Assembly (NCBI GenBank): GCA_963819125.1
Contig: CAWFUQ010000009.1
Location: 13,813 to 77,812 of the forward strand
DNA length: 64,000 nt
Direction of reading: 5' to 3'
DNA from: Terriglobia bacterium
GTDB lineage: Bacteria > Acidobacteriota > Terriglobia > Bryobacterales > Bryobacteraceae
Part shown: in pieces, positions 18,093 to 53,031 of the stretch
How positions within the stretch are numbered: the first letter of the stretch is position 1
Layout: every line of letters starts with the position of its first letter
Position numbers and translations under genes: made by a program
The notes under the pieces: model-generated
What the model saw: only the letters and a program-made list of their open reading frames with translations
Told to the model about the DNA's origin: nothing
Databases searched by the model: none

Positions 18093-18095
18093 CGA

Positions 18096-30532: not shown

Positions 30533-30638
30533 GTGTTTTGGTCTTACGCGGAAACCCGCAACCGTGCGGGAAGATCAACCCTATACGCTCGGCGTTCGTC
30601 TGTCAACTTGCAGGGTGTGAGATTTTCTTGAGAAACTT

Positions 30639-35957: not shown

Positions 35958-36065
35958 CGACGCTCCTTACCGAGTAACGGTGATTGAGTGATTATAGACT
36001 AGGCACCCGATCGCGCTACTCACTTCATCAGACCCTCGCGTACAGGTTCCATTACAAGCGGATAG

Positions 36066-36491: not shown

Positions 36492-36511
36492 GCCGCCACC
36501 TCGTCTATGAT

Positions 36512-36874
36512 TTACACGATCGTCCCGCACTCGGGACAAAACCTGGTTCCCTCTTGAAGTTGTGCACGGCAATGGGAGCACGTATTTTGGGGCTGGAATG
36601 GCTTGCCGCATGCGGGGCAAAACTTGGCGCCCGTCGATCGCGTGCCGCAACCTGAACACACGGAAAGAGCCCCGCCGTTCGCGGGAGGCGCGCCGGGCTG
36701 CGGAGCCCTCGGGCGGTCGAATCGAGTCAACCACCAGCCGACCAGGAGCGCGATGGCTACGAGACCGAGGCCGATTGCCCAGTCGCCAGCCGAATCGGCT
36801 TTGATCGCGATGCCGGCGATGAATACTACCAGCCCCACGATCCCGAGGATCTGTCCCGAAGTCCAGCCTTTCAT
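36512..36874 (-). CDS. membrane protein with C-terminal double zinc ribbon (paralog)
   Basis: Two TM helices are followed by CSGCGTRSTGAKFCPACGKPF...CSHCRAQLQEGTRFCPECG. The architecture matches 36066..36491. Confidence 0.65.
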   Translation of the reverse strand: MKGWTSGQILGIVGLVVFIAGIAIKADSAGDWAIGLGLVAIALLVGWWLTRFDRPRAPQPGAPPANGGALSVCSGCGTRSTGAKFCPACGKPFQPQNTCSHCRAQLQEGTRFCPECGTIV

Positions 36875-36959
36875 TTAGACCAATCCTCAACCACGCGCGA
36901 GCCTAAACTTCGGGCTCCGCAGTTGCGGCGGAATCGGGCTCGACCGCTCACCGCATGTT

Positions 36960-38219
36960 TCATTTCGCGGCAGGGATTTCCTTCATGTCCTCGCAGGCTT
37001 TTCTCTCTCCACCTGCACACGCCTTGCGATAGAGTTCCAAAGCACGAGCGTAATCCCGCACCACGCCCTTGGCGTCCCGATAACGGGCCGCAGCAGCAGC
37101 GCACCCTTCCGCGCTTCCCGCGTCGCATGCCTGGACGAACATCGCCGTCGCGTAGCTCTGACTGTCCTTGACGCTCTTGCCGTTCACCCCGAACAGCGAC
37201 ATCGTCCTGGCCCGATCGACCAGCTCGTCCACCTTTTTCACGGCTTCACAACTTGCGGCGCGGCCGGCCTCACACGCCTTTCGATGGAGCTGCATCGCCT
37301 TCACCGGGTCTGGTGCCGTCCCGCGCCCTTCCGCATTCATGACCGCGGCCTTGCCACACGCTTCCACATCGCCGGCATCGCAATTCCGTTCGTAGAACAG
37401 GCGATCGAATACATCTCTACCCTTCTCAGCGTCGGTTTGGGCTCTCCCTGGCTGGTCTTTCAGCAATTTCGTGGGATCGAAATCGCGATGTTCGAAGTCG
37501 TAATTTGATTTGTCCTCGCGTGCCTTCTCGGCGGCTTTCCGCTGCTGATTTTTCATGACCGTCCGCACGGCGACGATCGACAACACCAGAGCCACGACTA
37601 CGCCGGCAATGACTAGCCACACAGTTCCCGAGGACTGCGCACGTCCCGGCGCGCCGGCCGTCATTGCCAGCAAAGGCTTCCCGCATTTTGGACAGAACTT
37701 ACCTCCTTGTCCGGGCGCTCCGCAAGCTGCGCAGAATGACGGTGCTTGGACCACGGCGGCGGCCTCCACGGGAGTCTCCATGGCAAAGCGCGGCGTTTGG
37801 TCCACGACGACGGGCGGACTCGCTTGGTGCTGAAATATTTCCCGGGCGGGCGAAAAGTAGATCAACCCCAGGGTCAATCCGTTCAGCAGCGTCAAGCAGG
37901 TTTCGCAGAGGTCGGTCCAGCCGGTGGTGACGAATGGTCCCAGCAACAGGGACAAGAGCTGGACCACGATGGTGGTGACCAGATAAAAAACGGGCGCCCC
38001 ACGCCAGACCACGAAAAGACAAATGTTCGAGGCCAGATAAGCGAGAGCGAACCCGATCGCCAACACCGTGGCGCCCGGGACGATGAGATCTTTGTTCGCA
38101 GAGATGCTCTGCAGCGCGAAAGGAAGTGACGAGCTCGTCAGGTACGAGGCGAGCCCCATCGCCAGTCCCACGGGAATCTGCAGCAGAATCAGAAGTCGAA
38201 GCAGGCGTTTCGCAGGCAT
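36960..38219 (-). CDS. polytopic membrane protein with zinc ribbon, TM and Sel1-like C-terminal repeats
   Basis: Start at MPAKRLL. A 4-TM N-domain is followed by FCAACGAPGQGGKFCPKCGKPL, a TM helix and Cys-containing Sel1-like repeats (ACEAGRAASCE, ACDAGSAEGCAAAAARY, ACAGGERKACEDM). Confidence 0.7.
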   Translation of the reverse strand: MPAKRLLRLLILLQIPVGLAMGLASYLTSSSLPFALQSISANKDLIVPGATVLAIGFALAYLASNICLFVVWRGAPVFYLVTTIVVQLLSLLLGPFVTTGWTDLCETCLTLLNGLTLGLIYFSPAREIFQHQASPPVVVDQTPRFAMETPVEAAAVVQAPSFCAACGAPGQGGKFCPKCGKPLLAMTAGAPGRAQSSGTVWLVIAGVVVALVLSIVAVRTVMKNQQRKAAEKAREDKSNYDFEHRDFDPTKLLKDQPGRAQTDAEKGRDVFDRLFYERNCDAGDVEACGKAAVMNAEGRGTAPDPVKAMQLHRKACEAGRAASCEAVKKVDELVDRARTMSLFGVNGKSVKDSQSYATAMFVQACDAGSAEGCAAAAARYRDAKGVVRDYARALELYRKACAGGERKACEDMKEIPAAK

Positions 38220-38230
38220 AGTCGCTTCAC

Positions 38231-38780
38231 TCACAGAAAAGATTTGCCGCACTGCGTGCAAAATTTCGTTCCATCATTGGCGGTGCCGCAGGCTGGGCAG
38301 AACAGCACCCGTCTTGCCGCGACGTGTGGGCGCGGCGGTGCGGGTGTTGCGGGGGCTGGTTTCAGGTTCAGGCCGTCATACTGCTCCTTGAGCGGCGAGC
38401 TATAGATCATCATGAAGATGACTCCCGTCAGCACAACATTCGCCGAATGAAAAAAAATCCATCGAGCCGCTTCTGACCAGTGGCCCATGGACAATCGACA
38501 CGAGAATCGAAATCAAGTTGACGCCCGCGTACAGCGGCCGCGCGACATTCGAAAAGGCGCACAGACCGATACCCGCGCCGACCAGACCGATGAACAAGAT
38601 CAGGAAGGCGAGAAGGTCGACCCTGGATCCGAACCGAGCGGATAGCGGAGAGACGTCAGCCAGCGACGCCGCAAATTCTCCAAACAATCTGGGAGCGGAT
38701 AAGCTGATCGAGACGCGCTGCCCGATCCAGAGCGCCGCCTGAAGCGCCACCAGCATTCGAAGAATGTTTTTCGTTGGCAT
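38231..38780 (-). CDS. paralog of the N-domain plus zinc ribbon of 36960..38219, frame broken at an A8/T8 run
   Basis: ORFs 38400..38780 and 38231..38494 join into one paralog-like protein if one base is removed from the 8-nt homopolymer at 38460..38467. GPLVRSGSMDFFHSANVVLTGVIFMMIYSSPLKE aligns with GPFVTTGWTDLCETCLTLLNGLTLGLIYFSPARE. Confidence 0.55.
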
Positions 38781-38849
38781 ACCGGTTTCCGTCGCGACTG
38801 AGCTACTATATCGCGATCCAATCCGTAAGACCCCGCGCTGAGCCGTTCA

Positions 38850-39472
38850 TTACAGCCCGGACACGGGTGCTGAGACGATTTGCCACCCGCCTGCCTCCAG
38901 CCACATCCGGGTCACCTTGGCGGCATCGACGAAGCTGGCGCGGGCGAGGACGGGTCGCGGATGAAGAATCCGGTGATCTCTTCCGACAGAGCGTCTCGCG
39001 CCACGCCCTCGATCAGGACGGCATGGTTGGCTTCGATCATGCTGGGCTCGTCGGCGCGATCCCATAGCTCGGCTGCATTTACGAACGCGATGACATTCGA
39101 GCCCGCCTCGATATTCTGCGCCAAGTCCTCGAGCGAGTGTCCGCGCTCGGAATCGGCGGGCGCGTCGGAATTCGCAAGCAGACGGAGCAAATGATCTTGA
39201 GACACTCCCCCAGAAAGCGCGACGTCGGATGCGTCGTCGCACCAGCCGAGGTGCATGCCGCGAGTCACCAGATCGCCCTCCGAAAGTGCCCTGCCTAGGT
39301 AGAGCGCGCCCGCCGCCAGACTGCTGGTGTTCTCGAACCCGAAAGGATTGCTGAGCTGCGGCGTCGATTCCGCGGTCATATCCACGCCTGCCACGGTCAT
39401 GTCGCGGCCCCGGATCACCTCGCGGCGGACCGAAACATCGACTTGAAGCGGAACCTCTCGAAAATTAGACAT
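38850..39472 (-). CDS. papain-fold peptidase-like protein, Cys->Ser variant (paralog of 50680..51390), C-terminal frame break
   Basis: GFENTSSLAAGAL aligns with GFQGTCGLCSCEN, SLEDLAQNIEAGSNVIAFVNAAELW with TLEDLAGNIEQGRGVIIGVNAGVLW, and NHAVLIEGVARD with NHAITVTGVARD. The tail ASFVDAAKVTRMWLEAGGWQIV (like AKFVDAAMMREGWEEVGGSQVV) is in another frame, with the shift near 38935..38950. Confidence 0.6.
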
Positions 39473-39490
39473 AGAACATAACCTCCAATC

Positions 39491-40225
39491 CTAAGCAGGG
39501 CTCCAATTCAAGTTCCGAATCACCTTGCCACATGCGGTTCGCAACGCGCTCAAACTTCCCCGCGCCATGTAGCGGCGATCGGAATCCAGGACGATCTTGC
39601 GGAACGCCTCTTCTTCCGCCGCGGTCAACGGCTGCGCGGAGTCGGAAGCAGCCCTCGTGAGCGCCTCCGCAATCGCCGCGGGACTGCCCATCTGGTCGCG
39701 ATGATTCACGAACAGGTACGCACGCAGCTTGGGAATCGCCCGGCAATGGAGCACCGCGCAATGGGACCCACTGATCCCCAGCGTCTTCCCGATCTCATCC
39801 CATGACGCTTCGGCATGATTCAATTTCTCGAGTACGCAGTGCGATTCCTGGCCAGTCAATTCACCTGCTTCCGCAGCCCTGGAAAGCATGGACCGCAGGA
39901 AATCGGCTGACATCGCCGGCTCCGGCGCCACCTTCTTCGCAACCAGTCCGGGATTGCTTTCTGCAACTGTTTCAAGAGGTGTATCCCGGACCCGCTGCCG
40001 CACCAGCCGTTGAATCGCCCGGTTGATTTCGTTCCGCGCGATCTTCTGTACCCATTGGCTGAAGGGGCAATCGCCGCGAAATGTCGCCGAGCCTCGCCAG
40101 GCGCGAATGGCGACCTGTTGAACGACATCGCTCGCGAGCGCCGGATTGGACAATGCGTACCGGCACGCTCGTTCTACATGGACGGACGCTTCGCGCCATT
40201 GAGTCTCGAACTCTTCGCTGGTCAT
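39491..40225 (-). CDS. ECF-type sigma-70 family factor with ~70-aa C-terminal extension
   Basis: MTSEEFETQW...; region 2 is ASDVVQQVAIRAWRGSATFRGDCPFSQWVQKIARNEINRAIQR; region 4 is LTGQESHCVLEKLNHAEASWDEIGKTLGISGSHCAVLHCRAIPKLRAYL. The ATG overlaps a TGA in the neighbouring frame (GGATGACC). Confidence 0.75.
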   Translation of the reverse strand: MTSEEFETQWREASVHVERACRYALSNPALASDVVQQVAIRAWRGSATFRGDCPFSQWVQKIARNEINRAIQRLVRQRVRDTPLETVAESNPGLVAKKVAPEPAMSADFLRSMLSRAAEAGELTGQESHCVLEKLNHAEASWDEIGKTLGISGSHCAVLHCRAIPKLRAYLFVNHRDQMGSPAAIAEALTRAASDSAQPLTAAEEEAFRKIVLDSDRRYMARGSLSALRTACGKVIRNLNWSPA

Positions 40226-43200
40226 CCGCTTCCAAATACGTCGAGCGCCTTGCTCTCGGCGAGACCGCTTCGTTGGGATAACAACACGAGAAGCCGGTCG
40301 CGCGCGGCGATACTGTCGGCACCCGGCATCTTTGTGTTCGTCAACAAGCAATAGAGCCACGCCTGGCGGACGGCGCCGTCGGCGGGCTGTCCCGAGATCG
40401 CTCCCCACGGATTGCATGGCCGCGACCGTGGCGCGTTCCACAGATAAAATAGCTTTCTCGGGCGGATCCTGCATGACGAGCGGAAGCACTTGCCGCGTCA
40501 AGCCGCCGATGTGAGCAGCGACGAAAGAGAACATGAGGCAACGCATCGGGCACGCTTCGCAGCCAGGCTCCTCTCGTGGAGGCCGGTTGGTGACGGTCGC
40601 CACGAGCTGTTGATGAGCCTGCTCGAACGCATGACGCTGTTCGTCGTTCAACGCAGAGGCGCGCAGCCACCCAATCAGAAACGGACCGAGTGCGCGCGAC
40701 GCGGCTTCGCGCGTCAATCGATTCTCGGGAAGCAGTCCGCTTTCCGGAGTCAGCGCGCGGCGGCTCTCCAGAAAAACACCGAGCCAGTCGTGGACCGCCG
40801 AGGCCGCGGCGCAATACTCGATTCCAAATCCGCCATCGAGACGCAGACCGGACAATGCGCGGAGATCGGCACGCCAGGTATTCCACGCCGCCCACGCGCT
40901 GGCCGCGTCACCGAGCAAGAGATGTTCGCAGAACGCCGTCAGGCTCCTCTTCACGCGATCCCATCCGCGCGCCTCCTCGAGCGGCGTCAGAAAATCGCAA
41001 GGCGAGGCGCACCACTGGCAGCCTGCGTGTTGGCGGAGGTGGGCGCGCTTCTCCGGATCTGCCAGACGCGCCAGGTCGCGAACCTGATGATCGGTCAGCG
41101 CCTCTACGCGCGCTCCTTTCACCGGCAGGATCCGCACTAGAATCGCCGAACCGATTCGCTCATCATGAACGGCGGCCTGCCCGGTCGGCAGCGCGTTGAG
41201 ATGTCGGATCTGCGGCTCGCTCAGATTCATGCAGCTTCCGATCGCGTGCCGGTCCTCGGAGTCCAGGAGCTGATGCGCGATCTTGAGGTAGGAGTTCTTG
41301 AGAATCTCCGGCGCCAGCTTGCTGGGAATCTGGTCAGCGATGACGAAGCCTTCTCCATAAGCGCGCATTTCGGCGAGCATGTTGGTGAACATCGAAACGG
41401 CTTTCCCGCGCGGGTCGCCTGCCTCCGCGGAGACGCCGCCGCGTGGGGCTTCCAGCAGCCGGTGCGCCTCTTCCACTAGCGTCAAATGCTGCAGCCGCTC
41501 GCGCTGGTTTTCCGGCAGGTCGCGCTGTCGCGCTTCCGCGTATTGGCACAACAGGACAAACAACAGCGCCATGACGAAAGATTTTTCGTCGTCATCGCCT
41601 AGGTCCTGCAATTCCACTACCGCCGGCCGGGAAAAAATGGATTCGAGCGGCGTGGATCTCCTGGTGTTGAGCGCCAGGCCTTTGTTGCCGACCATCAGGC
41701 TGCGCAGCCGCGAGCGAAGTGCCGCGCCCATGTTCTGATGAATCTCCTGCCCATATTTTTTCCTGGCCAGCACGACCTCGATTTTGTCATGCAGATCCTG
41801 AAGATTAGGCGTTAGCGCGCTCAAATCGTCGAGCGAGGGACGATCTCCGAGAGAGGCGTTGCCGGAGTCGTACAGGCTCCAGCCACGCTCCGTGTAGATC
41901 TCGAGCAGCGCTTCCTCCAGCACGTACTGCATTCCGGCGAACATCGAAAAGGAGGCGTTAAAGACCGCCTTCAACATATCGATATGCCGTCCGAGAGGAA
42001 CGCCCTGCACCGGCGCCAGCGGATTCAGCCGGAGCGGGAGGGTAACCCCGCCACCAAAACCGAAGACGCCGAGCTTGCCTTTCAATTCTGGGGTCTGCAG
42101 CAGCCGGCGATATTCGCTCTTCGCCGGCTCGAGCACCAGGAACGGCACGCGCAGTTTCTCGAAAGACTCGAGGAGAATCTGCATGCACGTATTCGTCTTT
42201 CCGCTGCCGGGCGTTCCGGTGACGAACACGTGCCGGTTCAGCGATCCCGCGGGAATGGCAACCGGGCTCAGATCGCGGCTGAGTTCGTCCTGGAGGACGC
42301 CGATGGTGATCGAATCGGACTTGGGCGCCGGGACCGAGAGAGCGAACTCGCTGAAATCGCGCATCGGCAGACCGGGGATCTCGCGCTGCGGGGGCGTCAC
42401 CAGTACCGACAGCTCTTCGCAATCGAGACAGGTCGCCAGGGCGTCGAAGGCCGGTCCGAGCGGATGCCCCTGGTCGCCGGAGGCAGGCCGCATTTCCAGA
42501 ATGCGTCCGTATTCAATGCCGTTGCGCACGGACTCATCAGGGGGAGATAGGATACGCAGCGGATCGAGCGCGGAAGCATCGCCGCCGCCGAGACCGCGCA
42601 ATCCGCCGGCGACCGCGTGAACCGCAGCGTCGCTTTCGGCCACCAGGTACACTGCTGTTTGCCAGCATCCGCTGCCGCGGGCCCGGATCAGACGGTCCGT
42701 GTACTGTTGGATCATCTGCTCGCAGGCTTCGGCATGGGCGTCCAGCAAATCGACCCCGCCCGATTCGGACCAGTTCGTCCCGTCCTGGATCTGGCTTGCT
42801 CTGCCGGTGCTGTCCCGGCGTCCCGCCAAGTTCGCGGCAGTCATGGTTGTATTGAGCGCCGCGACGAATGGCATGGCGTTCATCCCTAGAGGAAGGGCGA
42901 CCAGGCTGGAGAAAGCCGCCACACTCGAAAGACAGAGCGGGAGATCCTGCAGCCACCGGTTCTTCTTCTGTGTTTCCTCAGTCTCGGTACGCGACTCGGA
43001 TTTCGATCCACCCTGCACCCGCTGCACCGTGCGCCGCACGTAGGCGTGCATCTCGCTCTTGAGGCGCCGGCAGATGTCGATGGCATCATCGATCGCCTCC
43101 GCTTCCAGGGGCCGGGCGACCAACATCAGCGCATAAGGCTGATCGCCGACGGCGGCCACCAGCCGGTCCAGACTCTGGAAGCTCGATGAGGGATCCTTCG

Positions 43201-43753
43201 ATCGCCGGGAGGGTATCCCGGTCATCACGCGCGTCGCTGGGGCATCGCGCAGGAAGGAAGCCAAATCCGGGAGGTCCTGCTGAGTGAGGCCGGCGAGCGG
43301 CCCGAATTCGAGCCCGTTCAAGTGTGAGCGGTAGGCGCTCTCCTGCATGGAGAGATAATCTTCCGTCGATCGCGCTCCGGCGCCGATGATGCGCCGGCCG
43401 CCCACGTACAGACGATGGCGGCCGCGTGAGCCATGAAGAATCACCACGAGTGAGTGCCCGGGATCGGAGCATGCCGTCAACACTTGCGGCATGGCGCGAG
43501 CGAAAATTCCGGGCTCCTGCGGGCGGCCCAGGCCCGTCACTTCGCGCAGCAGCGGACGCGCAATGTCGCCAGTTCTCGGCTGGATGTTCCAGTCAGCAGC
43601 CCGAAAGTGCGAGAGATACCTTCGTTCCAGAACCGACACCAATGCCTGCGGCAGACCTTCGGTGAATTGCACCTCGGCGGCCAGCGAGGGTCGCGCGGGC
43701 TCAGCGGCCGCGGATACCGCGACAGGCTGCGCCGGACGGGGATCAATCGGCAT
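40222..43753 (-). CDS. large HerA/FtsK-superfamily (DUF87-like) ATPase with ~480-aa unknown N-domain and Cys-cluster C-domain; apparent frame break near 40385..40395
   Basis: Walker A VFVTGTPGSGKTN, Walker B HLTLVEEAHRLLE, and GEGFVIADQIPSKL. The C-terminus has CQWCASPC and CEACPMRC. The last ~55 codons (GQPADGAVRQAWLYCLLTNTKMPGADSIAARDRLLVLLSQRSGLAESKALDVFGSG*) are in a different frame with better third-position GC. Confidence 0.8.
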
Positions 43754-44900
43754 CGACGTTTCCTCGTTCCCATGGCGGAATCAGCGGGGCTGGAGATGGC
43801 GAAGATTCCAGGTCAGGTTGCGCGAAGGTGGACGCCTCAATCGCGGGCATGGAATCGAGGAGCATTCCCGAGGGATGCTCGCCCAACTCGCCCCACCAAG
43901 TCGCTCCCGCGGCGACATCTTCGGCCGCTGCGCCGCTCCGCCATACCGGGGCCAGCGCGGCTGCGATTCTTTCGGCGAACGGCCAAACGGAACCCAGCCC
44001 GCCCACTAACAACAGTTCCGGCGAGTCACTTCCGATGGCTCGCAGCGCTCCTCGGATCGCGTCTGGAAGCTGCTGCGAGAACGAAACGAATTCGGGCCAA
44101 GCCGTGCATTCCCGATAAGAGAGTGACAGCGGAGCGTATAAGCGCTCCTCGAAGATCTCGCGCCACTCAACCGGTTGCTCAGCGCTCGATTGAGAAAGGC
44201 GCGCGGCGTAGCGGGCGGCCGCCTCGCGAAGGGGTCGTTCGAAGCCGGTTCCGGGTTCTTCGTTCAGCCGCTTGCGCACCAGGTCGAGCAGCCGCCGGTT
44301 CCAAGCGGACTCGCCGGCTTCCTCGATCGCCTGGGGGGCGCTGACAGCCGCGATCGACGGGAAGCCACGGCTGTCCCATTCAAGCCAGAAGGCAGTCACG
44401 AGAGTGGACGTCTCTCCCACAGCGATTGCGACGACGGCTTTCTGTTTGGCTGGTTCGAGCGACCGCGATGCGAACCAGCGGCACAGCAGCGCATGCGTGG
44501 CCGGAAGAACCGTGATCTCATCGAACCCCGCGGCGCGGGCCAAAGCGTCGACCGTATGCGCCTCCGTTCGAAAATTCGATCCCTGCAAAGCGATCGCGAG
44601 ACGGTATCCGTTTTTTCGCACGGGCGCGAGCCGGCCGAGATAGGCGGATAGACGGCGATACGCTCCCTCCCAAAAAAGACGGGCACCGGGCTCCTCGACC
44701 CATGCGCCGTTTCCGGAGGCGGTCCACAGAGGGGCATGTCCAGCCGCGCGGCTGCCCCAATCTCCCGTGCCCGCCACGGCGTTCGGAATTTGTGCGCGGA
44801 CGCCGTCGCCGACCAAAGCAACGTGCGCACCTTCATCACCCTCCTCGCGTAAAGCGATCACTGTGACGGAAGGCTGGTAATCCACGCCGAAGGTATTCAT
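43743..44900 (-). CDS. degenerate actin/Hsp70-fold (ASKHA-like) protein
   Basis: MNTFGVDYQPSVTVIAL, VVAIAVGETSTLVTAF and ELLLVGGLGSVWPFAERI sit where the phosphate-1, phosphate-2 and adenosine motifs would be. The stop overlaps the ATPase start by 11 nt. The fold assignment is tentative. Confidence 0.5.
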   Translation of the reverse strand: MNTFGVDYQPSVTVIALREEGDEGAHVALVGDGVRAQIPNAVAGTGDWGSRAAGHAPLWTASGNGAWVEEPGARLFWEGAYRRLSAYLGRLAPVRKNGYRLAIALQGSNFRTEAHTVDALARAAGFDEITVLPATHALLCRWFASRSLEPAKQKAVVAIAVGETSTLVTAFWLEWDSRGFPSIAAVSAPQAIEEAGESAWNRRLLDLVRKRLNEEPGTGFERPLREAAARYAARLSQSSAEQPVEWREIFEERLYAPLSLSYRECTAWPEFVSFSQQLPDAIRGALRAIGSDSPELLLVGGLGSVWPFAERIAAALAPVWRSGAAAEDVAAGATWWGELGEHPSGMLLDSMPAIEASTFAQPDLESSPSPAPLIPPWERGNVDAD

Positions 44901-44966
44901 CCGGCGAACCCTTGTTTCCATCCCCGCGGCGTCTCCGTGACGAAAGGGGCGGCCAGTTTGGCTGCT

Positions 44967-46569
44967 TCATCTGCCAGTTCTCGAAAGGCGGCTCTGCGCG
45001 TCCCGAAGCCGCCGAAGAGCGGTTTCATCGGGCATCGGACAATCCGCGGGCTGCAGCGAATAAAGCCGATCGAAACCCTCCAGGAGGCGCGGGCCGCGGG
45101 ACTGCATCGCCGTGATCAGGTTTTCGATCAGCCGCTGGATCTCCGCGCGAACGGTGGCCAGCCATTGCGGCGGACGGCCCAGCTTCTCGCCGACGAATGC
45201 AGGAATGGCCGCCACCACCGCATTGACGCCGCCTGCTTCGATTTTTTCAAGAAACCGGATCGGAAGAGCCGGCGGACAAGTCTGGCTCAATAAATACTCG
45301 GTCCACTCCGGATTCAAAGGCGCTTCGCCGCTTCGTCGCAACGTTTCACCGGCATGTTGAATCATCCGCCGCGCGGCGGCATCGGCGACGGCGGCGATTT
45401 CGCGATTCAATTCCTCCGCGTGGATTCCGCCTGAAGCCACTGCCACATTCGTCAGTCGTGATGAAATGCTTGCGCCGCAGGCTTTCGCGCCAACGGAGAA
45501 ATCCTCCAGGAATTTTTCGATAGCCTTGGACAAGGATTCCGCGAGTTGGCGCTTTCCCTCCGCACGGCGATCCACTTCCGCTGCCTCAGCTTCTTGCCGC
45601 TCGAAATCAGCCACCGCTTGGGCAGATGGGTTCTTCGAGCCGCGACGCACAATCCCGCAGCGCTGCCGCAGCGCGCCATAGCCGCGTCCGCATCACGCGT
45701 GGATGAAATCGCAGAATCCACTTGCACCATGAATCCCAGAAGATCCGCGCCGCCAAAGGTGTTCTGTCCGGATTTGCACATCGCACGCCCGCCACCGGCA
45801 GGATGGTGGGAGGCGCTTGTTCCGGAAAGCCCATATCCGGAGACGAAATGGCACACTTTATTGATCAACTGCGGAGCGCTTTTAGACAGGAACTGTTCCC
45901 ACTCCGCGGGACTGTCGGTACGAAGAAATCCATTCAGGATGAAGATCACCGAAGCCGGTCCGGATTCCTGGACGTGGCTCGCGAGGAATTCCATCTCCAC
46001 CTGCGAAAGGAGCTGGCGCGACGTCAGCACCCACGCCAACACATCCGAGTACGCGGCCGACCGGCGCGTGCGTTCGTCCATCTCGGGAGTATCGTTGTAT
46101 CCGGGCGAATCCACCCAGCACGCGTTGGCTGGAATCACGGAATCCTTGAGAACGATTTCGGCACGTTCGATAGCCGCCACCTCGCTGCGCCGCTCTCCAC
46201 GTTCCGAAAGCAATGTGATTTCGGCGCGAATGGCTTCAGTGGAGCAGGGGATCGCGCGCCTTGCTCCCGCTTCGATGACAACGGCGCCATCCTCATCGCC
46301 ACTCAGCAAGCAACAGATCGCGCCGGTATCGGGCACATCGTCGACCGGTAGGATGTCGCGCCCGACCACCGCGTTCATCATGGTCGATTTGCCGGCCTTG
46401 AACACGCCCCCGAAATTCACGGTCACCTGTTCTTCCCCGATCACACGTGTGAGCTTCCAAGCCGCGTCGCGATATCCGGAGCGTCGGCCTTCGTCATCGC
46501 AGCGAGTTCCTCGATCCGGGCATTCAGATCCTGCACAGCTTCTTTCGAAACACCAGCACAAAAAATCAT
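44967..46569 (-). pseudogene. dynamin-like GTPase 2, reading frame broken at least three times
   Basis: ATG at 46569 gives MIFCAGVSKEAVQDLNARIEELAAMTKADAPDIA. The GTPase domain lies in a second frame (GGVFKAGKSTMMNAVVG, WVDSPGYND). The helical C-terminal 227 aa lie in a third frame (ORF 44967..45650). Confidence 0.6.
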
Positions 46570-46577
46570 GCGGCTCT

Positions 46578-48591
46578 TTACGCTGTCTGCTGCAAACTCA
46601 CATTGAGCACCGTAAGCTCCTGCCGCAGCGCCCCGACCCGGCGCAACGATTGATCGAGCGAGGAAAGCATCCGCGCTTTTTCCGACTGGCTTCGCCGGTT
46701 GTTTTCGGCGATGGTGCGCAGATTTCTCTCTTTCCCTCGATGATGGTCAGCACCGCGGCGCTGATGTCCGTAGCCAGCTTGTCAATGTACGCCCCCGTTT
46801 CCGATTCGATCGGTGGAGCATAATTTTTCACCCACTTCATCGAGCCGAGGCAGGACGTCGTCGAGCGCTTTCTTCTTGACTCTCTGGGTGAGCCCGATGG
46901 TCCCGCCGACTACGTTCGCCACCATCCCTGCGCCGATGCCCCACAGCACCAGGTAGGGCAGTCCGAACCATCCAAGAGCGGCTACCGCTGCCAGGCGCGC
47001 GGCGATATTGAAGCTCAATCCGCGAAATCCGGTGGATAGCCCGGTCAGTGTCGTGAAATCCTGAAAGAGAACCAGTCCAACCACGGTCGACCACGCCCGT
47101 TCCTGATCGCTGATCATCTTATTGTCCGCTCCCGGTTCGAGTTTCCAGCCGGTCACCTGGAATTGGACATCGTCGAACTCGCGCTCGATCGCCGCCACCT
47201 CGTCCTGAACTTCCCGCAGCAGCGCTTCGAGGCCGGGCTCCAGAATTTTCTGCGCCGTGTCACCTTCCGCTGGCGGTTCCGTTGCACCAGGAGAGAACCT
47301 GCTCGCTGATCTGGCGTTCGCAGAACGAGTATGCCTCGGCCAACATTTCCTTCTGATGCGCGAGCGCCAGAGCCGTATCGGACGGCAGCTTTTCTGCCAT
47401 GAGCCGATCGGGAAGGGTTTGTTTCAACTGCACGGTTACCATTCCGAACCCGGCACGGATGTCGCGCAGGCTCTGGTCGCGGTACCGCCGGAAGATCTCC
47501 GGTAGCCGTTCATAACGCTTGCGAATGTCAGCCAGTTGCGGTTGAATCGCTTCGAACGCGACCCGCAATTGTTCGGTGTCGGCCTGCAGCGCGGCTTGCC
47601 GCTGCCGGACCTGCTGCTCGATGGTGACCGCCGAGTTGTCCGCCGCTTTCAGAAAACGATCGATATGAACGCGCTGCCGGTCGTGGACCAGGAACTCGCC
47701 GAGTTTCGCTTCAAAGCCGGCCAGACCCGATTGCTCCATCTGCCTCGCGTCAGCCAGCAACTTGCCCTGCTCCGCTTGCCTGGCGTCTACGAAGTAAATG
47801 TCGCGGCTCTTGAAATCCTGCGGAGCGTCGGCGCTGCCGCCAAAGTCCGTCACCAGACGACGCCACACAAAACCCTTGAAGCGATCATCCACCGCACGGC
47901 CATCCTGCAAATTCACCACCGTGAAAACGCGTGTTCCCGAGTTGGTGAGCGTCTCGTGCACGAACTTCCGCTCGTCCTCGCCGGCCAGGACGTCGCTGCG
48001 GTACACGACGATCGCCACGTCGCACTTGCCGATCGCCTGCCGCGTCACTTCGGTGCGCTCGGGGATATCGTCGGTGCCGGGCGAGTCGATGATCGTGACG
48101 CCGGATTGGCATAGCTCAGCCGGAAAGCCCATCTCGAATTCACGAATCTTGCGGAAGAAATCGCGCGTTTCGCTCTCGTTCTCGCGTACCGTGCCCTCGC
48201 GCCGGTACTTTTCTAGCGACCAGTCTTCTGAGTTTCCATCAAAACCCCATGCGCGAACAGTGGGCCGCTCGGCGTAATGAATGGAGGTCAGCGTAGCGGT
48301 GCACGGCAGCTCGCCAACCGGCATGGGGCCCTGGCCGAACCCGAGCTCGGGAACCGGCCTTGTGGAGCCACCAAGAAGCGCATTCAGAAGGGTCGATTTA
48401 CCGTTCTTAAAGCGGCCCGTGACAATGATCTGAAAAGTATCCGACGCCAGCCGTTCGGCGGTTTGCTCCAGCCGGGCGGCGGTCTCTTTCATATCGAGAC
48501 TCGACGCCAGCGTTGTCAGATCGAGAATTGTTTTGCGAGCCTGGGTTTTCGATCGTCCAAATTCCTGTTCCAGTAATTGCTTCAGAACCAT
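46578..48591 (-). pseudogene. dynamin-like GTPase 1 (BDLP-like, ~670 aa) split over four frames
   Basis: G1 is GRFKNGKSTLLNALLG and G3 is IIDSPGTDD. ORF 47260..48591 continues sensibly into 46782..47198 (hydrophobic paddle LAAVAALGWFGLPYLVLWGIGAGMVANVVGG). It then continues into 46598..46840 and into a fourth frame ending ...LRQELTVLNVSLQQTA* at 46578. Confidence 0.7.
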
Positions 48592-48610
48592 CGATGCGCT
48601 CCATCCTACC

Positions 48611-50116
48611 CTATAGCCTTTGCCTGTACAACAACAACTGAGCTCGATCCAACTCCGCGGCCGAATCTCCGTCGGGAACCTTCATCGCCTGTGCGTAGGC
48701 GGCATCCAATGTGGTCTCGATCGCGCTTAATTCCGCAGCCAGGCGATCGCGGTATTCGGCGATCGCGCCCTGGATCGCGGTCCTCGATTCGGGGATCGCT
48801 TGGCGCGTCATCGCATGAATGGCTTGCCGCGCCGCCTGAGCGGACTGCTCGAAGGATTGGCCGCGCCGCGCGATACCCAGCGCCGCAAGCAAGCTGGAAA
48901 CGGCGACCGTCGCGACCAGACCGGTGCTGAGCGCCGCGGCTAAACCGAACAGCGCCACGACACCGGTCACTCTATCCTGCCACTCCGGTCCTGAGGTGGT
49001 GTGCTCCAGCGCGGGAGCGTGCGGATCCACCGGAATTCTCAGCGACACCGCAGCCGGCCGCGCGGGATTTCCCGCCATCGCGTGAACGAAGTCCCAATCG
49101 ATTCGATCCAGCAGCGTCTGCGTTTCGAGGATGATCCCGGCGACCCGCTGATCGAGTTCCACCTCCAGGCGCAGCCGCCATGAGGTCATCCCTTCTTCGA
49201 TGCACTTTTCCAGCAGCGACTGAAACTTGCGGCTGTAGACATGAGTGTCCTTCCACAGTCCGGACTGTCCCTCCCGCACCTTTTCGATCCGCCGTAGCAG
49301 ATCCTGTTCGAGCGCCAGCAGCGAGGCGGCTACCTGGGCCGAAAGACTCGCGGCGTCGCCATCCATGCGGCGCGCCACGCGGCTTCGAACTTCAGCGACT
49401 TCAACTCGCGCGCGGCGCAGGCGGCCGGCATCGCCGTCGCGGGCCGGATGTGTTGCCGGCGTGAATCCTTCCGCGAAGTCCAGCAGCCGGGACACTTGCG
49501 CGCGATCCAGCAATTCGACATCGGGATCGGCCAGAGGCCGCCGCAGCAGCGCCGCCAGTTCCTCCGCGTCACGGCGGCAGCGGTCGCGCAGAAATTCGTT
49601 GGGTTCGGAAGCGCTCCACAAGTAGCACTGATACGCGAGGAGATCCTGCCGCTGCCACTCGCGTTTTGGATCGGGAACCACCAGCCGCCAGATGGCGCGT
49701 TCCATCTGGTCCAGATCCTCCGGCGATTTGAGGCGTTCCGCGTGCGTGAATACGATCGCGAAGGATTCGAGAGGCCGCGTCAGGAACTGCTCCGCGATAG
49801 CCGTCGCCGCGGCTGCATCGAGTGCGCGGCCGCACTCGAAAACGGCGACCAGCTTCGTCGCGAACCACGCGCTAAACGGCGGCGCGGCGATCTCCCCGAT
49901 GGGGGCTTCCGTGATTTCCGCGGGATCGGCCGTTTGCTGCATCCAGTTCCGCAGCGGTGTAGCGTCCACGCCAGCGCCGTGCGCGAGCAGGATCTCCCGC
50001 CGCGTCCTGCGAGACAGAATCGCCGCCGCAAGATCCTCGACGGATTTCCAGCCGCGGCGCGCCGCCAGGTCGCGTATGCCCTGGACAACCTCTTCGTTAA
50101 TGGATGCTGCCGTCAT
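48611..50116 (-). CDS. dynamin-like paralog with degenerate P-loop and hydrophobic paddle
   Basis: 501 aa. LLAHGAGVDATPLRNWM sits where G1 would be, with no GK[ST]. There is a helical stalk, a paddle-like VTGVVALFGLAAALSTGLVATVAVSSLLAALGIA and a C-terminal helix. The layout matches the two downstream DLPs. Confidence 0.55.
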   Translation of the reverse strand: MTAASINEEVVQGIRDLAARRGWKSVEDLAAAILSRRTRREILLAHGAGVDATPLRNWMQQTADPAEITEAPIGEIAAPPFSAWFATKLVAVFECGRALDAAAATAIAEQFLTRPLESFAIVFTHAERLKSPEDLDQMERAIWRLVVPDPKREWQRQDLLAYQCYLWSASEPNEFLRDRCRRDAEELAALLRRPLADPDVELLDRAQVSRLLDFAEGFTPATHPARDGDAGRLRRARVEVAEVRSRVARRMDGDAASLSAQVAASLLALEQDLLRRIEKVREGQSGLWKDTHVYSRKFQSLLEKCIEEGMTSWRLRLEVELDQRVAGIILETQTLLDRIDWDFVHAMAGNPARPAAVSLRIPVDPHAPALEHTTSGPEWQDRVTGVVALFGLAAALSTGLVATVAVSSLLAALGIARRGQSFEQSAQAARQAIHAMTRQAIPESRTAIQGAIAEYRDRLAAELSAIETTLDAAYAQAMKVPDGDSAAELDRAQLLLYRQRL

Positions 50117-50122
50117 GGCGCA

Positions 50123-50647
50123 CTACTTCTCCAGCCATTCGAAGAAATCGGGCACGATGGCGCGATACTGCGGCTGAAGCGGCTCCGGAAGAAGTTCCGT
50201 CAACATCGACGCAAGGCTCCGGCGCTCGATCGCATCCCCTGGTTCGCCTGCGAAAAAGCGCGGCGTCAGAGTCTCCAGTTTCTCTTCCATAGTCTTCAAC
50301 GATTGACGCAGCTCGTCTCTGGTGATCGCGACGCGCGGCAACGTGACCGCCTCGAATTTCGCGCCCGATGGAAAGGTAATCGACTTCGTCAATGCGTAGA
50401 CCATCAGCCGCCCGCCGTAGGCTGCCACTACCCACCAGCGGTCTGGGGCGCTTTGCTGCATGGGCTCCTGCGGCCGCCGCAGCGCCGCGGCTGCGAAGTA
50501 GGCGTAGGAAGGCTCGCCCCATTTCATCGTCGGTAGCGGCAGTGAGATGGCATGCTCGGTGGGAATTTCCGAGCGGATCAGGAAGTGGGTCTTCTGAAGC
50601 TCGCGCAGTTCCGCGTAACTCATGAGATGTTTTTGGATGGTTGTCAT
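50123..50647 (-). CDS. small hypothetical protein (174 aa)
   Basis: I prefer the start at MTTIQKHL because GGAGAG lies 6 nt upstream. The ORF track opens at 50752, which overlaps the peptidase gene. There is a 6-nt gap to the next gene and no known domain. Confidence 0.5.
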   Translation of the reverse strand: MTTIQKHLMSYAELRELQKTHFLIRSEIPTEHAISLPLPTMKWGEPSYAYFAAAALRRPQEPMQQSAPDRWWVVAAYGGRLMVYALTKSITFPSGAKFEAVTLPRVAITRDELRQSLKTMEEKLETLTPRFFAGEPGDAIERRSLASMLTELLPEPLQPQYRAIVPDFFEWLEK

Positions 50648-50679
50648 ATCTGCTCTCTCCGCTTGGTCCATATGGTTTG

Positions 50680-51390
50680 TTAATTCGGCAAAGCCTTGGA
50701 AAAGGGGCGGCTTTCCGCGGTCACAACCTGCGATCCGCCGACTTCTTCCCAACCCTCACGCATCATGGCAGCGTCCACGAATTTTGCGGCTTCGCCTGTT
50801 CCGCTGTCATTCACGAAAAAGCCCTGAATATCGCCGGTCGCGGGATCGCGGGCTACTCCTGTCACCGTGATTGCATGATTCGATACGTTGCCGCTGTCGG
50901 CGTTCGCGTCATTCCAAAGCACGCCGGCATTGACCCCGATGATCACTCCCCGGCCCTGCTCGATGTTGCCGGCCAGATCCTCCAGCGTTCCGCCATGAGA
51001 CGCGCTGGAGGGGACACCGAGACGCGTGAGGATGTCGGCACGCCCTTCCGCCGTGGTGCCTCCGTTCTTGGCCGGGTCCGGATCGTCGCATGAGCACAGA
51101 CCGCGCGTACCTGCGAAAAATACCAGGTCCGATTCCGTTACTTCCAGTCCGAACGACCGCAGAACATTTTCGCATGAGCACAGTCCACAGGTTCCCTGAA
51201 ATCCGCTGAAACTGTCGCCTTGCCGGTGCGTAAATCGTTTGTCCCCTTCCGGGTCGCCGATCACCACGGTCTCACGGCCGTCCGGAAGCACGTCCACGTG
51301 GGACGGCACCTCACCAGTGCCGAAATCGCTGAAATTGGGCACATCAGCAGGTACGTCCCGGATGAAATCGTCTTTGAATCTGTCTTCCAT
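50680..51390 (-). CDS. papain-fold cysteine peptidase-like protein
   Basis: A Cys motif (GFQGTCGLCSCENVLRSFG), a His motif (NHAITVTGVARD) and a downstream D/N (GFFVNDSG) suggest a C-H-D/N triad. No signal peptide. I cannot assign the family by eye. Confidence 0.65.
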   Translation of the reverse strand: MEDRFKDDFIRDVPADVPNFSDFGTGEVPSHVDVLPDGRETVVIGDPEGDKRFTHRQGDSFSGFQGTCGLCSCENVLRSFGLEVTESDLVFFAGTRGLCSCDDPDPAKNGGTTAEGRADILTRLGVPSSASHGGTLEDLAGNIEQGRGVIIGVNAGVLWNDANADSGNVSNHAITVTGVARDPATGDIQGFFVNDSGTGEAAKFVDAAMMREGWEEVGGSQVVTAESRPFSKALPN

Positions 51391-51452
51391 CGCGTCCTCT
51401 CTTTACGTCTCCTACCGCCTTCAATCCTTCAGACCCCCGATCAGGGCCGCCC

Positions 51453-52328
51453 TTACAGCTTGTTGGAACATTTCTCCGTCAATGCTCCTAAGAGATAGGC
51501 ACTTGTCCAGATCGCCGCTGACATCAGGGGGAAGAAGAGGATGACGCCGATTCCGCTCAACGCGGCGATCGCGGTTATCGAAATGACGGCGGCCATCATG
51601 CACCACAGCAACACCAGAAACTTTGCGAATCCAAAGAAATGACGGAAAAGCAGGGCGACACACGCCGGAAGGTTAAAGAAGCTGCCGGCCTTTCCCGTTT
51701 GCGAGAACCGGACGACGGCAGCGCTGAATACCGGCAACGCCAGCGAAATGTACCCGAGAACAATTACCGGTCGCCACCACGATAGTACGAGCTGCGCGTA
51801 CAGCATTTCCCATAAGGGAGGACTCGCCTGGCCCTGCAGATGGTGCCACAGCCATAGTGAGATTTGGAGAGCGAGGGTCCACAGTCCGAACGAAGCAACC
51901 CACCAGTACAGCATCACAGGCAGCATTATATAGAGCCAGAAGAACGCGACGACGATCGCGCCATCCGTCAGAAAGCGGCCAAGATCGTTTGGCTGCGGCA
52001 AAGATTCCGGCATGCGACGGCTCTTTCTCCGGACCGCGTCGATCGCCCATCCGGCGCTGAGAAACATTCCCAGTGGAATCGGCAAAGGAAGCCACCACAG
52101 GAACGTCATCCACAGACTCCGGATCCATTCGCGTCGATAGAACGGCCAACTGACGGAATTTCCAGCGTACGGCGTCCGCCAGATCATGCTGAGCGGCACC
52201 CAGTCCTGAAGCGCGTCGGTTTTCGCCAGGTCGGATAAGCCCACCCTGCCCTCGAACAGGAACGCCCTTATTTGCGTGTCCGAGTACGGGCCGTACGATT
52301 GGCCTGTCCTATGGATGAAGTAATTCAC
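51453..52328 (-). CDS. GYF_2 (DUF4339)-like domain fused to a polytopic membrane domain
   Basis: A GTG start gives VNYFIHRTGQSYGPYSDTQIRAFLFEGRVGLSDLAKTDALQDWVPLSMIW, followed by about 6 TM helices. The ORF track opens further upstream at 52544. Confidence 0.65.
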   Translation of the reverse strand: MNYFIHRTGQSYGPYSDTQIRAFLFEGRVGLSDLAKTDALQDWVPLSMIWRTPYAGNSVSWPFYRREWIRSLWMTFLWWLPLPIPLGMFLSAGWAIDAVRRKSRRMPESLPQPNDLGRFLTDGAIVVAFFWLYIMLPVMLYWWVASFGLWTLALQISLWLWHHLQGQASPPLWEMLYAQLVLSWWRPVIVLGYISLALPVFSAAVVRFSQTGKAGSFFNLPACVALLFRHFFGFAKFLVLLWCMMAAVISITAIAALSGIGVILFFPLMSAAIWTSAYLLGALTEKCSNKL

Positions 52329-52542
52329 CGTTTCGACCCTTCCCGATCGTCGATGAGAATGACCCTGGCAAGTCCGCAAGCTTACAACATTCTGCGAATT
52401 TGCCGCGAACTTTCTTCGCCGCTGCAACCTGCTCGGGCAGAACCTGTGCATGCCCTCGTCCCGAGGCGATTTGGAAGGTCGATGTATAATCACCGCTGAC
52501 CTGGACACCCCAAAAGGAAATCGTGGCTCGGATGTCGAACAC

Positions 52543-53031
52543 ATGTCTGTGACGTGCCCAAAGTGCGGATTGATGAGTCCGCAAGGGGCGGAGGAATGCG
52601 ACTGCGGCTACAACTTCGCGACCGGCAGCTTCACGCCAAAGCCCAAGCCTAGCCCTGCCCCGGGAACGAGCGTCTCAACATATCTCACGTTCTCGGCGGG
52701 AGCTGTATGCTGCTGGGGCTGGATGATTTTCACACTTGCAGAGCGAGGATTACACCCTTCCACTCTTGCTGCAGCTTCATATTTCGTGGTGTTAGTCCTA
52801 CTGACTTGTGGTTTCGCGTTTTCGTTTCTGAGGCTTGCCAAACGCTCCCAGTGGAGCCAGATGATTATGCTGATCCAAATCGTCACGCTGATGGCGGTGG
52901 CTGGATCGTTTGCGTGGCAACTCGGCTTTTCTGACGAAGGCGTTTTCATTGCCTTCATGGGTGGTGGGATTGTGCTCATCGCCGGGCTCTTTTGGCTCGC
53001 TGCCCGCGTGAACAAGAAGCGAGGCTACTGA
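52543..53031 (+). CDS. N-terminal zinc-ribbon membrane protein
   Basis: MSVTCPKCGLMSPQGAEECDCGYNF is followed by four TM helices. An alternative start at 52450 is possible. Confidence 0.6.
   Translation: MSVTCPKCGLMSPQGAEECDCGYNFATGSFTPKPKPSPAPGTSVSTYLTFSAGAVCCWGWMIFTLAERGLHPSTLAAASYFVVLVLLTCGFAFSFLRLAKRSQWSQMIMLIQIVTLMAVAGSFAWQLGFSDEGVFIAFMGGGIVLIAGLFWLAARVNKKRGY

Follow-up and report, generated by a model that had tools for sequence, protein, structure and literature searches.

A seven-gene cassette, rare but kept across bacterial phyla, combining a papain-like peptidase, dynamin-like proteins, an Hsp70-like protein and a VirB4-like ATPase: a probable conflict-type system in a Terriglobia bacterium

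Here we describe a self-contained, horizontally moving accessory cassette found in a Terriglobia bacterium (Acidobacteriota), in a 64,000-nt stretch of contig CAWFUQ010000009.1 (assembly GCA_963819125.1, positions 13,813 to 77,812 of the forward strand; the whole stretch is called the window below). Its core consists of seven consecutive genes (A to G) encoding a peptidase, a 174-aa protein, a dynamin-like protein (DLP) without a P-loop, two further DLPs, an Hsp70-like protein and an ATPase of ~1150 aa, and comparison across phyla shows that A-G are inherited as a unit. We regard it as very likely that this is a conserved and functional, membrane-associated cassette of the conflict type, in which an effector/inhibitor pair is joined to a nucleoside triphosphatase engine. 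The cassette is apparently undescribed. In the window, the core is followed by a sigma factor gene (H) and a degenerate copy of the peptidase gene (I), and the nine genes together (A-I, minus strand, from 51390 to 38850) are a genuine module, with the following components.

50680-51390, minus strand: A, cytoplasmic papain-like (C39_2-like) cysteine peptidase of 236 aa, the predicted effector
50123-50647, minus strand: B, 174-aa protein of a family without a Pfam domain, predicted to lie over the active site of A
48611-50116, minus strand: C, P-loop-less dynamin-like protein of 501 aa with a hydrophobic paddle segment
46578-48591, minus strand: D, dynamin-like GTPase 1 (DLP1), with orthologues of ~670 aa that have a P-loop and paddle
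44967-46561, minus strand: E, dynamin-like GTPase 2 (DLP2), with orthologues that have a P-loop
43743-44921, minus strand: F, divergent protein resembling the Hsp70 nucleotide-binding domain (NBD), by hhalign with proteins that carry the Pfam HSP70 domain
40222-43753, minus strand: G, ATPase with a VirB4/EccE-like N-domain, a HerA/FtsK-type ATPase domain and a Cys-rich C-domain
39491-40225, minus strand: H, sigma-70 factor of the extracytoplasmic function (ECF) type, 244 aa, by Sigma70_r2 and TIGR02937
38850-39472, minus strand: I, pseudo-peptidase, a paralogue of A with the Cys replaced by Ser

The locus first drew attention in an initial annotation made from the sequence alone, which proposed a module of ten genes. 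All ten open reading frames (ORFs) are indeed co-directional on the minus strand, spanning 52544 down to 38850 in the ORF listing of the window, and the junctions agree on re-measurement: 62 nt between the tenth gene (J, a GYF-type membrane protein gene upstream of A) and A, 8 or 32 nt for A-B according to which start codon is taken, 6 nt for B-C, 19 nt for C-D, 45 or 66 nt for E-F, overlaps of 11 nt for F-G and of ATGA for G-H, and 18 nt for H-I. The D-E gap alone differs, being ~16 nt from the first in-frame start and not 8 nt. Comparison with related loci narrows the conserved part of the module to A-G, with the sigma gene optional and J outside it. The family assignments of that annotation (papain-like Cys peptidase, three dynamin-like proteins of which one lacks a P-loop, degenerate actin/Hsp70-fold protein, HerA/FtsK-type ATPase, ECF-type sigma factor, Ser-variant copy of the peptidase) all hold on domain and profile checks.

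The arrangement is far beyond chance, because the same gene order recurs in other phyla. Neighbourhoods were collected from three look-ups and 80 genome loci (numbered with the prefix L) and scored by tblastn and by hidden Markov models built from the components; the 19 related loci counted here are those whose ATPase is orthologous (at least 43% identical) and whose upstream sequence is long enough. A-B-C-D-E-F-G is fully collinear in 17 of them. The order C-D-(E)-F-G is kept in 19 of 19, and A-B precede it in 18; the exceptions to full collinearity are Rivularia L006, which lacks E, and L023, a metagenome-assembled genome (MAG) of an actinomycete, which lacks A-B. Loci cut by contig ends have consistent partial orders. 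The cassette is present in at least seven phyla, with hosts among the Actinomycetota, Cyanobacteriota, Acidobacteriota, Abditibacteriota, Chloroflexota and Pseudomonadota, and with a consistent partial order on truncated Armatimonadota contigs (L009, L010). For A-F, the matrices of pairwise identity follow the matrix of G with r 0.90-0.97, values of a kind that shared ancestry inflates, and the mean identity of B across orthologues is 42%. A collection of 5.8 billion proteins holds 687 relatives of G, and full-length orthologues (~1100-1200 aa) are found in Streptomyces, Microbispora, Nocardia, Kitasatospora, Rivularia, Leptolyngbya and Chthonomonadaceae, among others.

Across this breadth the cassette is rare: a search of 40 relatives of the source genome (24 of the same genus) did not find it, and a relative of the ATPase N-domain occurs in only 3 of 401 sampled genomes of its own phylum. 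This bears out the accessory status that the initial annotation had suggested.

Several members of the module are frameshifted in the window, as the initial annotation had cautioned, and such breaks could be taken as a sign of a decaying relic. Comparison with a 79%-identical orthologous locus in a Steroidobacteraceae MAG (L003) confirms that the breaks are present and places them: three 1-base breaks in D (47272, ~46810 and 46730), one in E (between 45512 and 45623), 1 base in G (40403) and one in I (near 38930), with a further break in the first of the zinc-ribbon genes that follow I (~38455 is among the clustered breaks there). Run X1, a public freshwater-sediment metagenome and perhaps the source sample itself, has contigs with 99+% identity to the window, whose sole differences are 1-base indels at 40403, 47272 and 46730, each seen in a single contig at a depth of 2.5-2.8. 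All three coincide exactly with frame breaks, and each restores the frame; after removal of the base at 40403, G has 1176 aa, as long as its orthologue, and ends at the ATGA overlap with the sigma start. Because three of three X1 indels fall on frame breaks, the window frameshifts are probably consensus errors of the assembly (15 contigs, 85% complete) and not gene decay, and the assembly probably carries further indel errors elsewhere. The breaks at 45512-45623, ~46810 and ~38930 lie outside X1 coverage, and two other runs (X2 and X3) offer only short or diverged pieces (90-99% identity) that are uninformative on these breaks. Gene order is kept across phyla, which rules out chance juxtaposition, the catalytic motifs are invariant, and three breaks are contradicted by frame-restoring contigs; overall, chance assembly or a decaying relic has a negligible probability.

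The predicted effector is A. Its window copy matches Peptidase_C39_2 with 21.8 bits, just below the cut-off of 24, and its orthologues are annotated with PF13529. Gln57, Cys68, His172 and Asp195 are invariant in all orthologues, and neither a signal peptide nor a hydrophobic segment is found in them; judged by these features, A is shown to be a catalytically intact, cytoplasmic papain-like peptidase. The active domain is preceded by no more than a leader of ~55 aa without a known domain, and A is constant across the clade. Profile searches against the PDB matched A to designed repeat proteins only, and these were dismissed as artefacts. Its weak similarity to Peptidase_C39_2 could also be read as a role in the maturation of secreted peptides, like that of the C39 domains that remove double-glycine leaders. 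This is highly improbable, as no conserved ABC exporter or small precursor gene accompanies the cassette and B is a well-folded protein of 174 aa.

B, which the initial annotation had left as an unassigned ORF, is now predicted to be a partner that blocks the active site of A. Its family comprises 151 clusters, all annotated as hypothetical and without a Pfam domain, and appears confined to the cassette. The AlphaFold2 (AF2) model of B has a predicted local distance difference test (pLDDT) score of 93.7. Neither Foldseek nor VIA-align gives a clear fold match, and there is no PDB profile match and no usable ESM Atlas match; the closest fold is the PepSY-like domain of YpeB (Z 4.1, 68 aligned residues, root-mean-square deviation (rmsd) 3.2), which is unconvincing and at most hints at an inhibitor-like fold. 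Prediction of the A+B complex gives a score of 0.90, against 0.00 for the best control, with at least 96% contact agreement between runs and a partner pLDDT of at least 90. The mark used for this score is reached by 58 of 80 solved complexes and by 2 of 110 mismatched pairs, and is approximate here as our own alignments were used. In the predicted interface, residues 65-69 and 171-173 of A (around Cys68 and His172) face residues 21-31 of B, the most conserved loop of the latter. B is thus predicted to bind A so as to cover the catalytic Cys and His, and to be an inhibitor, an immunity protein or a substrate mimic of A; it may represent a new family of inhibitors of papain-like peptidases.

The pseudo-peptidase I has Ser at the position of the catalytic Cys; in L003 the His is missing as well, and in L014 the protein is cut short. 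I occurs solely in loci whose sigma gene directly follows G on the same strand (the window, L003 and L014).

Of the three DLPs, D and E match Dynamin_N with 75.7 and 64.4 bits, respectively (cut-off 27), and D additionally matches Dynamin-like_hel_bact with 38.5 bits (cut-off 28.3). The P-loop is present in 14/14 orthologues of D and 20/20 of E, and in 0/15 of C. C aligns with DLP1 (hhalign 96.9%, E 1.7e-10) from the G3 region onward, and these profile data identify it as a DLP derivative, not a GTPase. Hydrophobic paddle-like segments are found in C and D in every locus checked (three), and in E in two of three. The orthologues of E have ~520-600 aa, or ~710 in Abditibacteriota-type loci. In many loci the stop codon of E overlaps the start of F by 4 nt, and in Actinoplanes subglobosus (L026:7074-9965) E and F form a single ORF of 963 aa, which is either a fusion hinting at physical contact or a sequencing error.

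F aligns with proteins carrying the Pfam HSP70 domain (hhalign 99%, E 5.6e-18, 337 columns) and weakly with the DnaK NBD profile itself (E 0.03). Its phosphate-2 motif D-x-G-G-G-T is replaced, and it has no substrate-binding domain, ending ~40-100 residues after the NBD. In F (43743-43800) and in all orthologues, a variable linker that is probably disordered leads to a conserved C-terminal PPW-(E/Q/L)-R, and this tail looks like a docking peptide.

The ATPase G has three parts. Models for HerA/DUF87, VirB4-like, mad8 and CedD proteins match residues ~490-880, where the Walker A (GxGKT) and Walker B (EEAH) motifs are invariant. The N-terminal 490 residues (AF2, pLDDT 78.9) resemble the VirB4 protein TrwK of the R388 type IV secretion system (T4SS; 7o42_A, VIA Z 15.2, 256 aligned, rmsd 3.7, Foldseek probability 0.99-1.0) and, less closely, chain 6lar_G of ESX-3 (Z 8.1, 163 aligned, rmsd 3.6), which is probably EccE3; all other matches are at Z 7.6 or below. 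The structural model therefore assigns the N-domain to the VirB4/EccE fold, which specifies the earlier description of G as a HerA/FtsK-type ATPase. The C-terminal ~250 residues (40222-41113) contain conserved Cys, including two C-x2-C-x3-C motifs, and may bind a metal or an Fe-S cluster; no relative of this domain was found in the ESM Atlas.

The VirB4-like fold raises the question of whether the cassette serves a mobile element, through DNA or protein transfer, exclusion or partition. Its patchy distribution is as expected under horizontal transfer, and in L003 a tyrosine integrase is encoded ~8 kb downstream of the module (L003:22716-23531). We nevertheless consider such a function very unlikely. 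The conserved set includes no relaxase, coupling protein, VirB3/6/8/9/10 homologue or replication gene among its Pfam and NCBIfam matches, and in isolates the cassettes lie amid chromosomal metabolic genes. The recombinase relics that were initially thought to flank the module could not be confirmed: the window contains no integrase or resolvase match (PF00589, PF00239) and ten scanned flanking ORFs contain no recombinase domain. On the same contig, the nearest integrase fragment (C9:171-404) lies ~13 kb before the start of the window.

The N-domain of G defines a wider family (1405 representative clusters with E of 0.001 or less, 210 with E of 1e-30 or less), and its more distant members are informative about function. 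Sister loci with an ATPase of 30-40% identity and with room upstream number 47, and in 13 of them the gene directly before that of the ATPase is Hsp70-like. Directly after the ATPase gene, L043 and L048 encode an LHH nuclease and then a SUKH_5/SMI1 immunity protein, L042 encodes an LHH nuclease, L039 and L047 encode WHH/colicin-DNase proteins and then DUF6985, and L035 encodes a Zn-metallopeptidase-like protein. The nuclease toxins carry N-terminal extensions of 120-200 aa; an N-terminal domain common to these toxins and A was sought and none was found. Three distant loci again have DLPs after the toxin genes. These Hsp70-like genes and toxin/immunity pairs therefore point to a recurring theme, in which an Hsp70-like/VirB4-like ATPase engine is joined to a toxic effector plus a protein that neutralises it. 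The clade to which the window belongs has a peptidase as effector and an obligatory DLP trio.

Some sister loci differ in other ways. L043 (an Arcobacteraceae MAG, 13239-18848) encodes the sister ATPase, LHH toxin and SUKH protein together with two dynamin-family GTPases and FtsZ/tubulin. In L031 the Hsp70-like protein is fused to a double zinc ribbon, and in L070 a zinc-ribbon gene precedes the ATPase gene. In the Obscuribacterales/Melainabacteria (L052-L065 and L067), the sister ATPase lies between a TrwB-like protein of 900-1500 aa and giant proteins of 1400-2800 aa, with a conserved gene for a ~190-aa protein after the ATPase; this arrangement is a different cassette.

Two uses of such an engine have to be weighed, namely action of the peptidase inside the producing cell, as in an abortive-infection or containment-type response, and export of the peptidase between bacteria. 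We put forward the former tentatively. In the latter, the ATPase and the Hsp70-like chaperone would recognise the peptidase, or in sister systems the small LHH or WHH nuclease toxins, the DLPs would remodel the membrane for its release (for example in vesicles) and B would provide immunity. Much is compatible with export: the N-domain of G has the fold of T4SS VirB4 and of EccE from type VII secretion systems (T7SS), the predicted complex has B lying over the active site of A, C39-like papain toxins form an established class of polymorphic toxin (PMC3482391), and the N-terminal extensions of the sister-locus nucleases are of the kind seen in trafficking domains. DLPs such as LeoABC (PMC4159319) and IniA/IniC (PMC10240201) have been linked to the release of toxins or vesicles, and secretion has been raised as a possible role of an EccE3-like/VirB4-like ATPase by Bell et al. 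(PMC11090510). Against this, the conserved set lacks a polytopic channel, an outer-membrane component and a signal peptide, yet occurs in monoderm and diderm hosts alike; the A-B pair is strongly conserved and stands alone, no orphan A/B cassettes or extra immunity genes having been found in the genome; and the B family appears cassette-confined. Delivery between bacteria is thus rather doubtful. A broader version, in which Hsp70-like/VirB4-like ATPase pairs (with or without DLPs) form an unrecognised route of toxin delivery by secretion or vesicle release, unlike the numbered secretion systems and carrying the C39-like peptidase here and LHH/WHH nucleases in sister clades, is likewise doubtful.

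Between the two sites of action we lean slightly towards the inside of the producing cell, because the same gene set serves monoderm and diderm hosts without a channel or outer-membrane component, A-B are strongly conserved and no orphan immunity genes were found. The theme has precedent, as HerA-family ATPases that assemble with effectors are an established element of defence (PMC11291478, PMC11514289). Several observations weigh against an intracellular conflict system. Mean identity is higher for A (52%) than for the ATPase (49%), an unusual feature in an arms-race effector. The LHH, WHH and SUKH families of the sister loci are typical of exported polymorphic toxins (PMC3482391), and the VirB4 and EccE folds belong to secretion machines, both of which favour export. 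PADLOC gives no system-level match, only weak matches to LeoA, LeoBC, mad8 and HerA. The A-B complex is a model, and B could equally be a substrate. Finally, metabolic genes make up most of the flanks of the related loci; PADLOC models match only about 6 of 85 proteins encoded there, and a scan of these 85 shows no clear enrichment of defence genes. The initial annotation had pictured an island of accessory or defence cargo, and while the accessory part stands, the defence-island setting is unsupported because of these metabolic flanks.

Regulation appears to be built into the unit. H, the C-terminal part of a 1420-aa ORF but a separate protein, matches Sigma70_r2 with 32.4 bits (cut-off 24) and TIGR02937 with 43.0 bits (cut-off 42.9), and has a conserved C-terminal extension of ~55 aa; no anti-sigma factor was identified. 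When 19 sequences from upstream of A were searched for dyads, 8 had the -35/-10-like motif GTAATG-N14-17-GGGTCT, where shuffled sequences gave 4-5 at most; the same search upstream of the sigma genes found nothing above shuffled controls. With one mismatch allowed, the motif precedes A in 12 of 14 sigma-bearing loci (including the window, and counting the truncated sigma gene of L021), against 0 of 4 scored sigma-less loci with an A gene (L006, L015, L016 and L028); in the sigma-less L024, there is only a 10/12 match, 358 nt upstream. Exact copies number two in the 5.86-Mb genome, both of them in this locus (reversed control 0; 0.21 expected by chance in the window), and they stand before genes for three or four double-zinc-ribbon membrane proteins (with Sel1 or RDD parts) at 35178-38780, which are syntenic with L003. 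L003 carries the motif at the place equivalent to the pre-zinc-ribbon site. The promoter-like motifs and the genes on either side of the module are as follows.

51453-52544, minus strand: J, GYF_2 + DUF4013 membrane protein (Pfam), adjoining and co-directional, probably outside the unit
51431-51456, minus strand: promoter-like motif before A, GTAAGG-N14-GGGTCT, 11/12 against the family consensus (motif scan)
38828-38853, minus strand: exact promoter motif GTAATG-N14-GGGTCT before the zinc-ribbon membrane genes
36960-38780, minus strand: double-zinc-ribbon/Sel1 multi-pass membrane protein, orthologue of a 402-aa gene of L003, split by frame breaks
36066-36890, minus strand: double-zinc-ribbon membrane protein
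36030-36055, minus strand: second exact promoter motif GTAATG-N14-GGGTCT
35178-35966, minus strand: zinc-ribbon + RDD membrane protein, the last gene syntenic with Steroidobacteraceae L003

The unit therefore reaches downstream past I, to 35178. Transcription of the cassette and, in this lineage, of the zinc-ribbon genes to 35178 is most likely driven by the cassette's own sigma factor, a reading that follows from the positions of the motif before A and before the zinc-ribbon genes, with synteny to L003 ending at 35178 as well. At the other end, J, which had been counted as a member, has no counterpart in any related locus, and the promoter motif of the operon lies at its 3' end, in the J-A gap and overlapping its stop codon (51431-51456).

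The position of H varies among the 19 loci. Actinobacterial and Abditibacteriota loci have it upstream of A; L003 and L014 have it downstream of G, the position seen in the window; and L013 has it on the opposite strand. In six core-bearing loci (L006, L015, L016, L023, L024 and L028) it was not found within the flanks. A system that ends in a dedicated sigma factor, as first proposed, is thus not what the family shows: the sigma gene is optional, and is upstream in actinobacteria and Abditibacteriota.

These features bear on a further alternative, in which the locus is a regulon for envelope stress or membrane repair, the DLPs mending the membrane as proposed for DynA and IniA, and A, B and I forming a proteolytic switch that acts on the sigma factor, for example by cleaving its C-terminal extension. 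The dedicated ECF sigma factor with this extension and the autoregulatory promoter before the operon would fit, as would the motif before membrane-protein genes, the high conservation of A and B, and the ordinary metabolic flanks. The sigma gene also adjoins a peptidase-like gene in 12 of 13 sigma-bearing loci (A where it is upstream, I where it is downstream on the same strand), the exception being L013. The six loci that keep the core with no sigma gene in their flanks speak against it, and therefore for a role of A independent of the sigma factor; nuclease toxin/immunity pairs in the sister ATPase/Hsp70-like loci are a misfit with repair, and the cassette is very rare and patchy for a housekeeping response. 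We consider a stress or repair regulon unlikely.

For the conflict-type cassette acting within the producing cell, the following sequence of events can be envisaged. A membrane signal would induce or activate the sigma factor, which would transcribe its own operon and so create positive feedback. The DLP trio would place the complex on remodelled or damaged cytoplasmic membrane, where the Hsp70-like/VirB4-like ATPase pair would spend ATP to strip B from A, or to hand A on, and the freed A would cleave its targets. I, always encoded beside the sigma gene, might serve as a decoy or as a partner of the sigma factor. The initial annotation had supposed that DLPs and ATPase act as a sensor that drives a transcriptional output and proteolytic effectors; this is possible in outline, but the sigma factor seems to drive the cassette itself and the zinc-ribbon genes, and not only an output.

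No described system with this combination of genes emerged from PADLOC, NCBIfam or the literature, in line with the initial annotation. Searches of PADLOC, NCBIfam and Pfam yielded no system-level name, nor one at family level for B, for F or for either end of G (its N- and C-terminal parts), and no description of the combination was found in a literature search that left most subscription journals outside its reach.

The nearest relative among DLP systems is Eleos, which is said to have been presented as a defence system by Millman et al. in 2022. Eleos (LeoA + LeoBC) and LeoABC of enterotoxigenic E. coli (PMC4159319) resemble the cassette in having adjacent DLPs, one of them without a complete GTPase domain, in an accessory locus. 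The matches to PADLOC Leo models are weak (LeoA E 1.5e-10, LeoBC E 2.3e-8 and 3.5e-5; 38.8, 31.6 and 21.1 bits), the LeoBC match at E 3.5e-5 being C. However, Eleos consists of DLP genes alone and has no counterpart of the peptidase/inhibitor pair, the Hsp70-like protein or the VirB4-like ATPase, whereas DLPs are three of seven in the cassette, with four further genes strictly co-inherited.

The DO-GTPase/GAP1 systems (Kaur et al. 2020, PMC7159879) likewise combine paired GTPases, an Hsp70-family protein, zinc ribbons and membrane components, with variable effectors, soil, filamentous or social hosts and, in some cases, tubulin, of which the FtsZ/tubulin gene beside the DLPs in sister L043 is reminiscent. 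DO-GTPases are, however, a separate TRAFAC family that needs GAP1 (PMC7159879), whereas D and E are true Dynamin_N proteins. No Pfam match to a GAP1-like protein was found in B, C or F, the presence of GAP1 models in the library being unconfirmed. Neither dynamin nor a HerA/VirB4-type ATPase is mentioned for DO-GTPase systems by Kaur et al. (PMC7159879).

For the pairing of F and G, the closest parallel is in the extended type III-A CoCoNuT loci (Bell et al. 2024, PMC11090510), where an EccE3-like/VirB4-like FtsK-HerA ATPase is encoded beside the Hsp70-like CnuD with the same domain logic, a likeness by description and not by sequence. The CoCoNuT context is one of McrBC-type restriction and vWA proteins, without DLPs, a peptidase pair or a sigma factor. 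T4SS VirB4/TrwK and T7SS EccE share the fold of the N-domain of G, and its ATPase domain matches HerA and VirB4-like chains by profile, but VirB3/6/8/9/10, VirD4 and relaxase are not recognised among the conserved genes of the cassette, nor is there an EccC or WXG100 match, only a part of G being EccE-like; G in turn has an extra Cys-rich C-domain of ~250 aa compared with VirB4 and EccE.

HerA-effector complexes (Sir2-HerA, HerA-DUF4297) and mad8 of MADS also couple a HerA-family ATPase to an effector, and G matches the PADLOC models of mad8 (E 6e-17) and HerA (down to E 2.8e-8). Their partners are different, however: genes for Sir2, DUF4297, NurA or a methyltransferase are missing from the cassette, and G has double the length and a VirB4-type N-domain. 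Polymorphic toxins, including Tox-PLC39 (Zhang et al. 2012, PMC3482391), share with the cassette a toxin-like papain-fold peptidase followed by a small predicted blocker, but no trafficking domain is recognised in the cassette, no orphan cassettes were found, and the effector is constant in the clade, variable toxins being found only in the sister clades.

The roles of bacterial dynamins, and the uses of HerA/VirB4-type ATPases other than in secretion and repair, are largely open, and the cassette bears on both. Two active DLPs and one inactive DLP have as obligate partners an Hsp70-like protein, a VirB4-like ATPase and the pair of protease and predicted inhibitor, and the cassette therefore offers a defined, transplantable seven-gene unit for testing the partners, cargo and trigger of dynamins. 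It occurs in culturable Streptomyces, Microbispora, Nocardia, Actinoplanes and cyanobacteria. It also offers an ECF sigma family with a clear promoter motif, and a link to the wider Hsp70-like/VirB4-like ATPase pairs that carry nuclease toxins. Export of the toxin, if true, would mean a new secretion route, and intracellular action, if true, a new class of regulated cell-suicide or defence system.

Two minor observations concern the surroundings and occurrence of the locus. The region is flanked at a distance by genes for two large proteins with a winged-helix Trans_reg_C domain and TPR repeats (30621-32543 and 58120-60399). Soil-metagenome contigs of X2 and X3 match short stretches of the module (38800-52600) at 90-99% identity with thin coverage, which suggests that related cassettes occur in soil.

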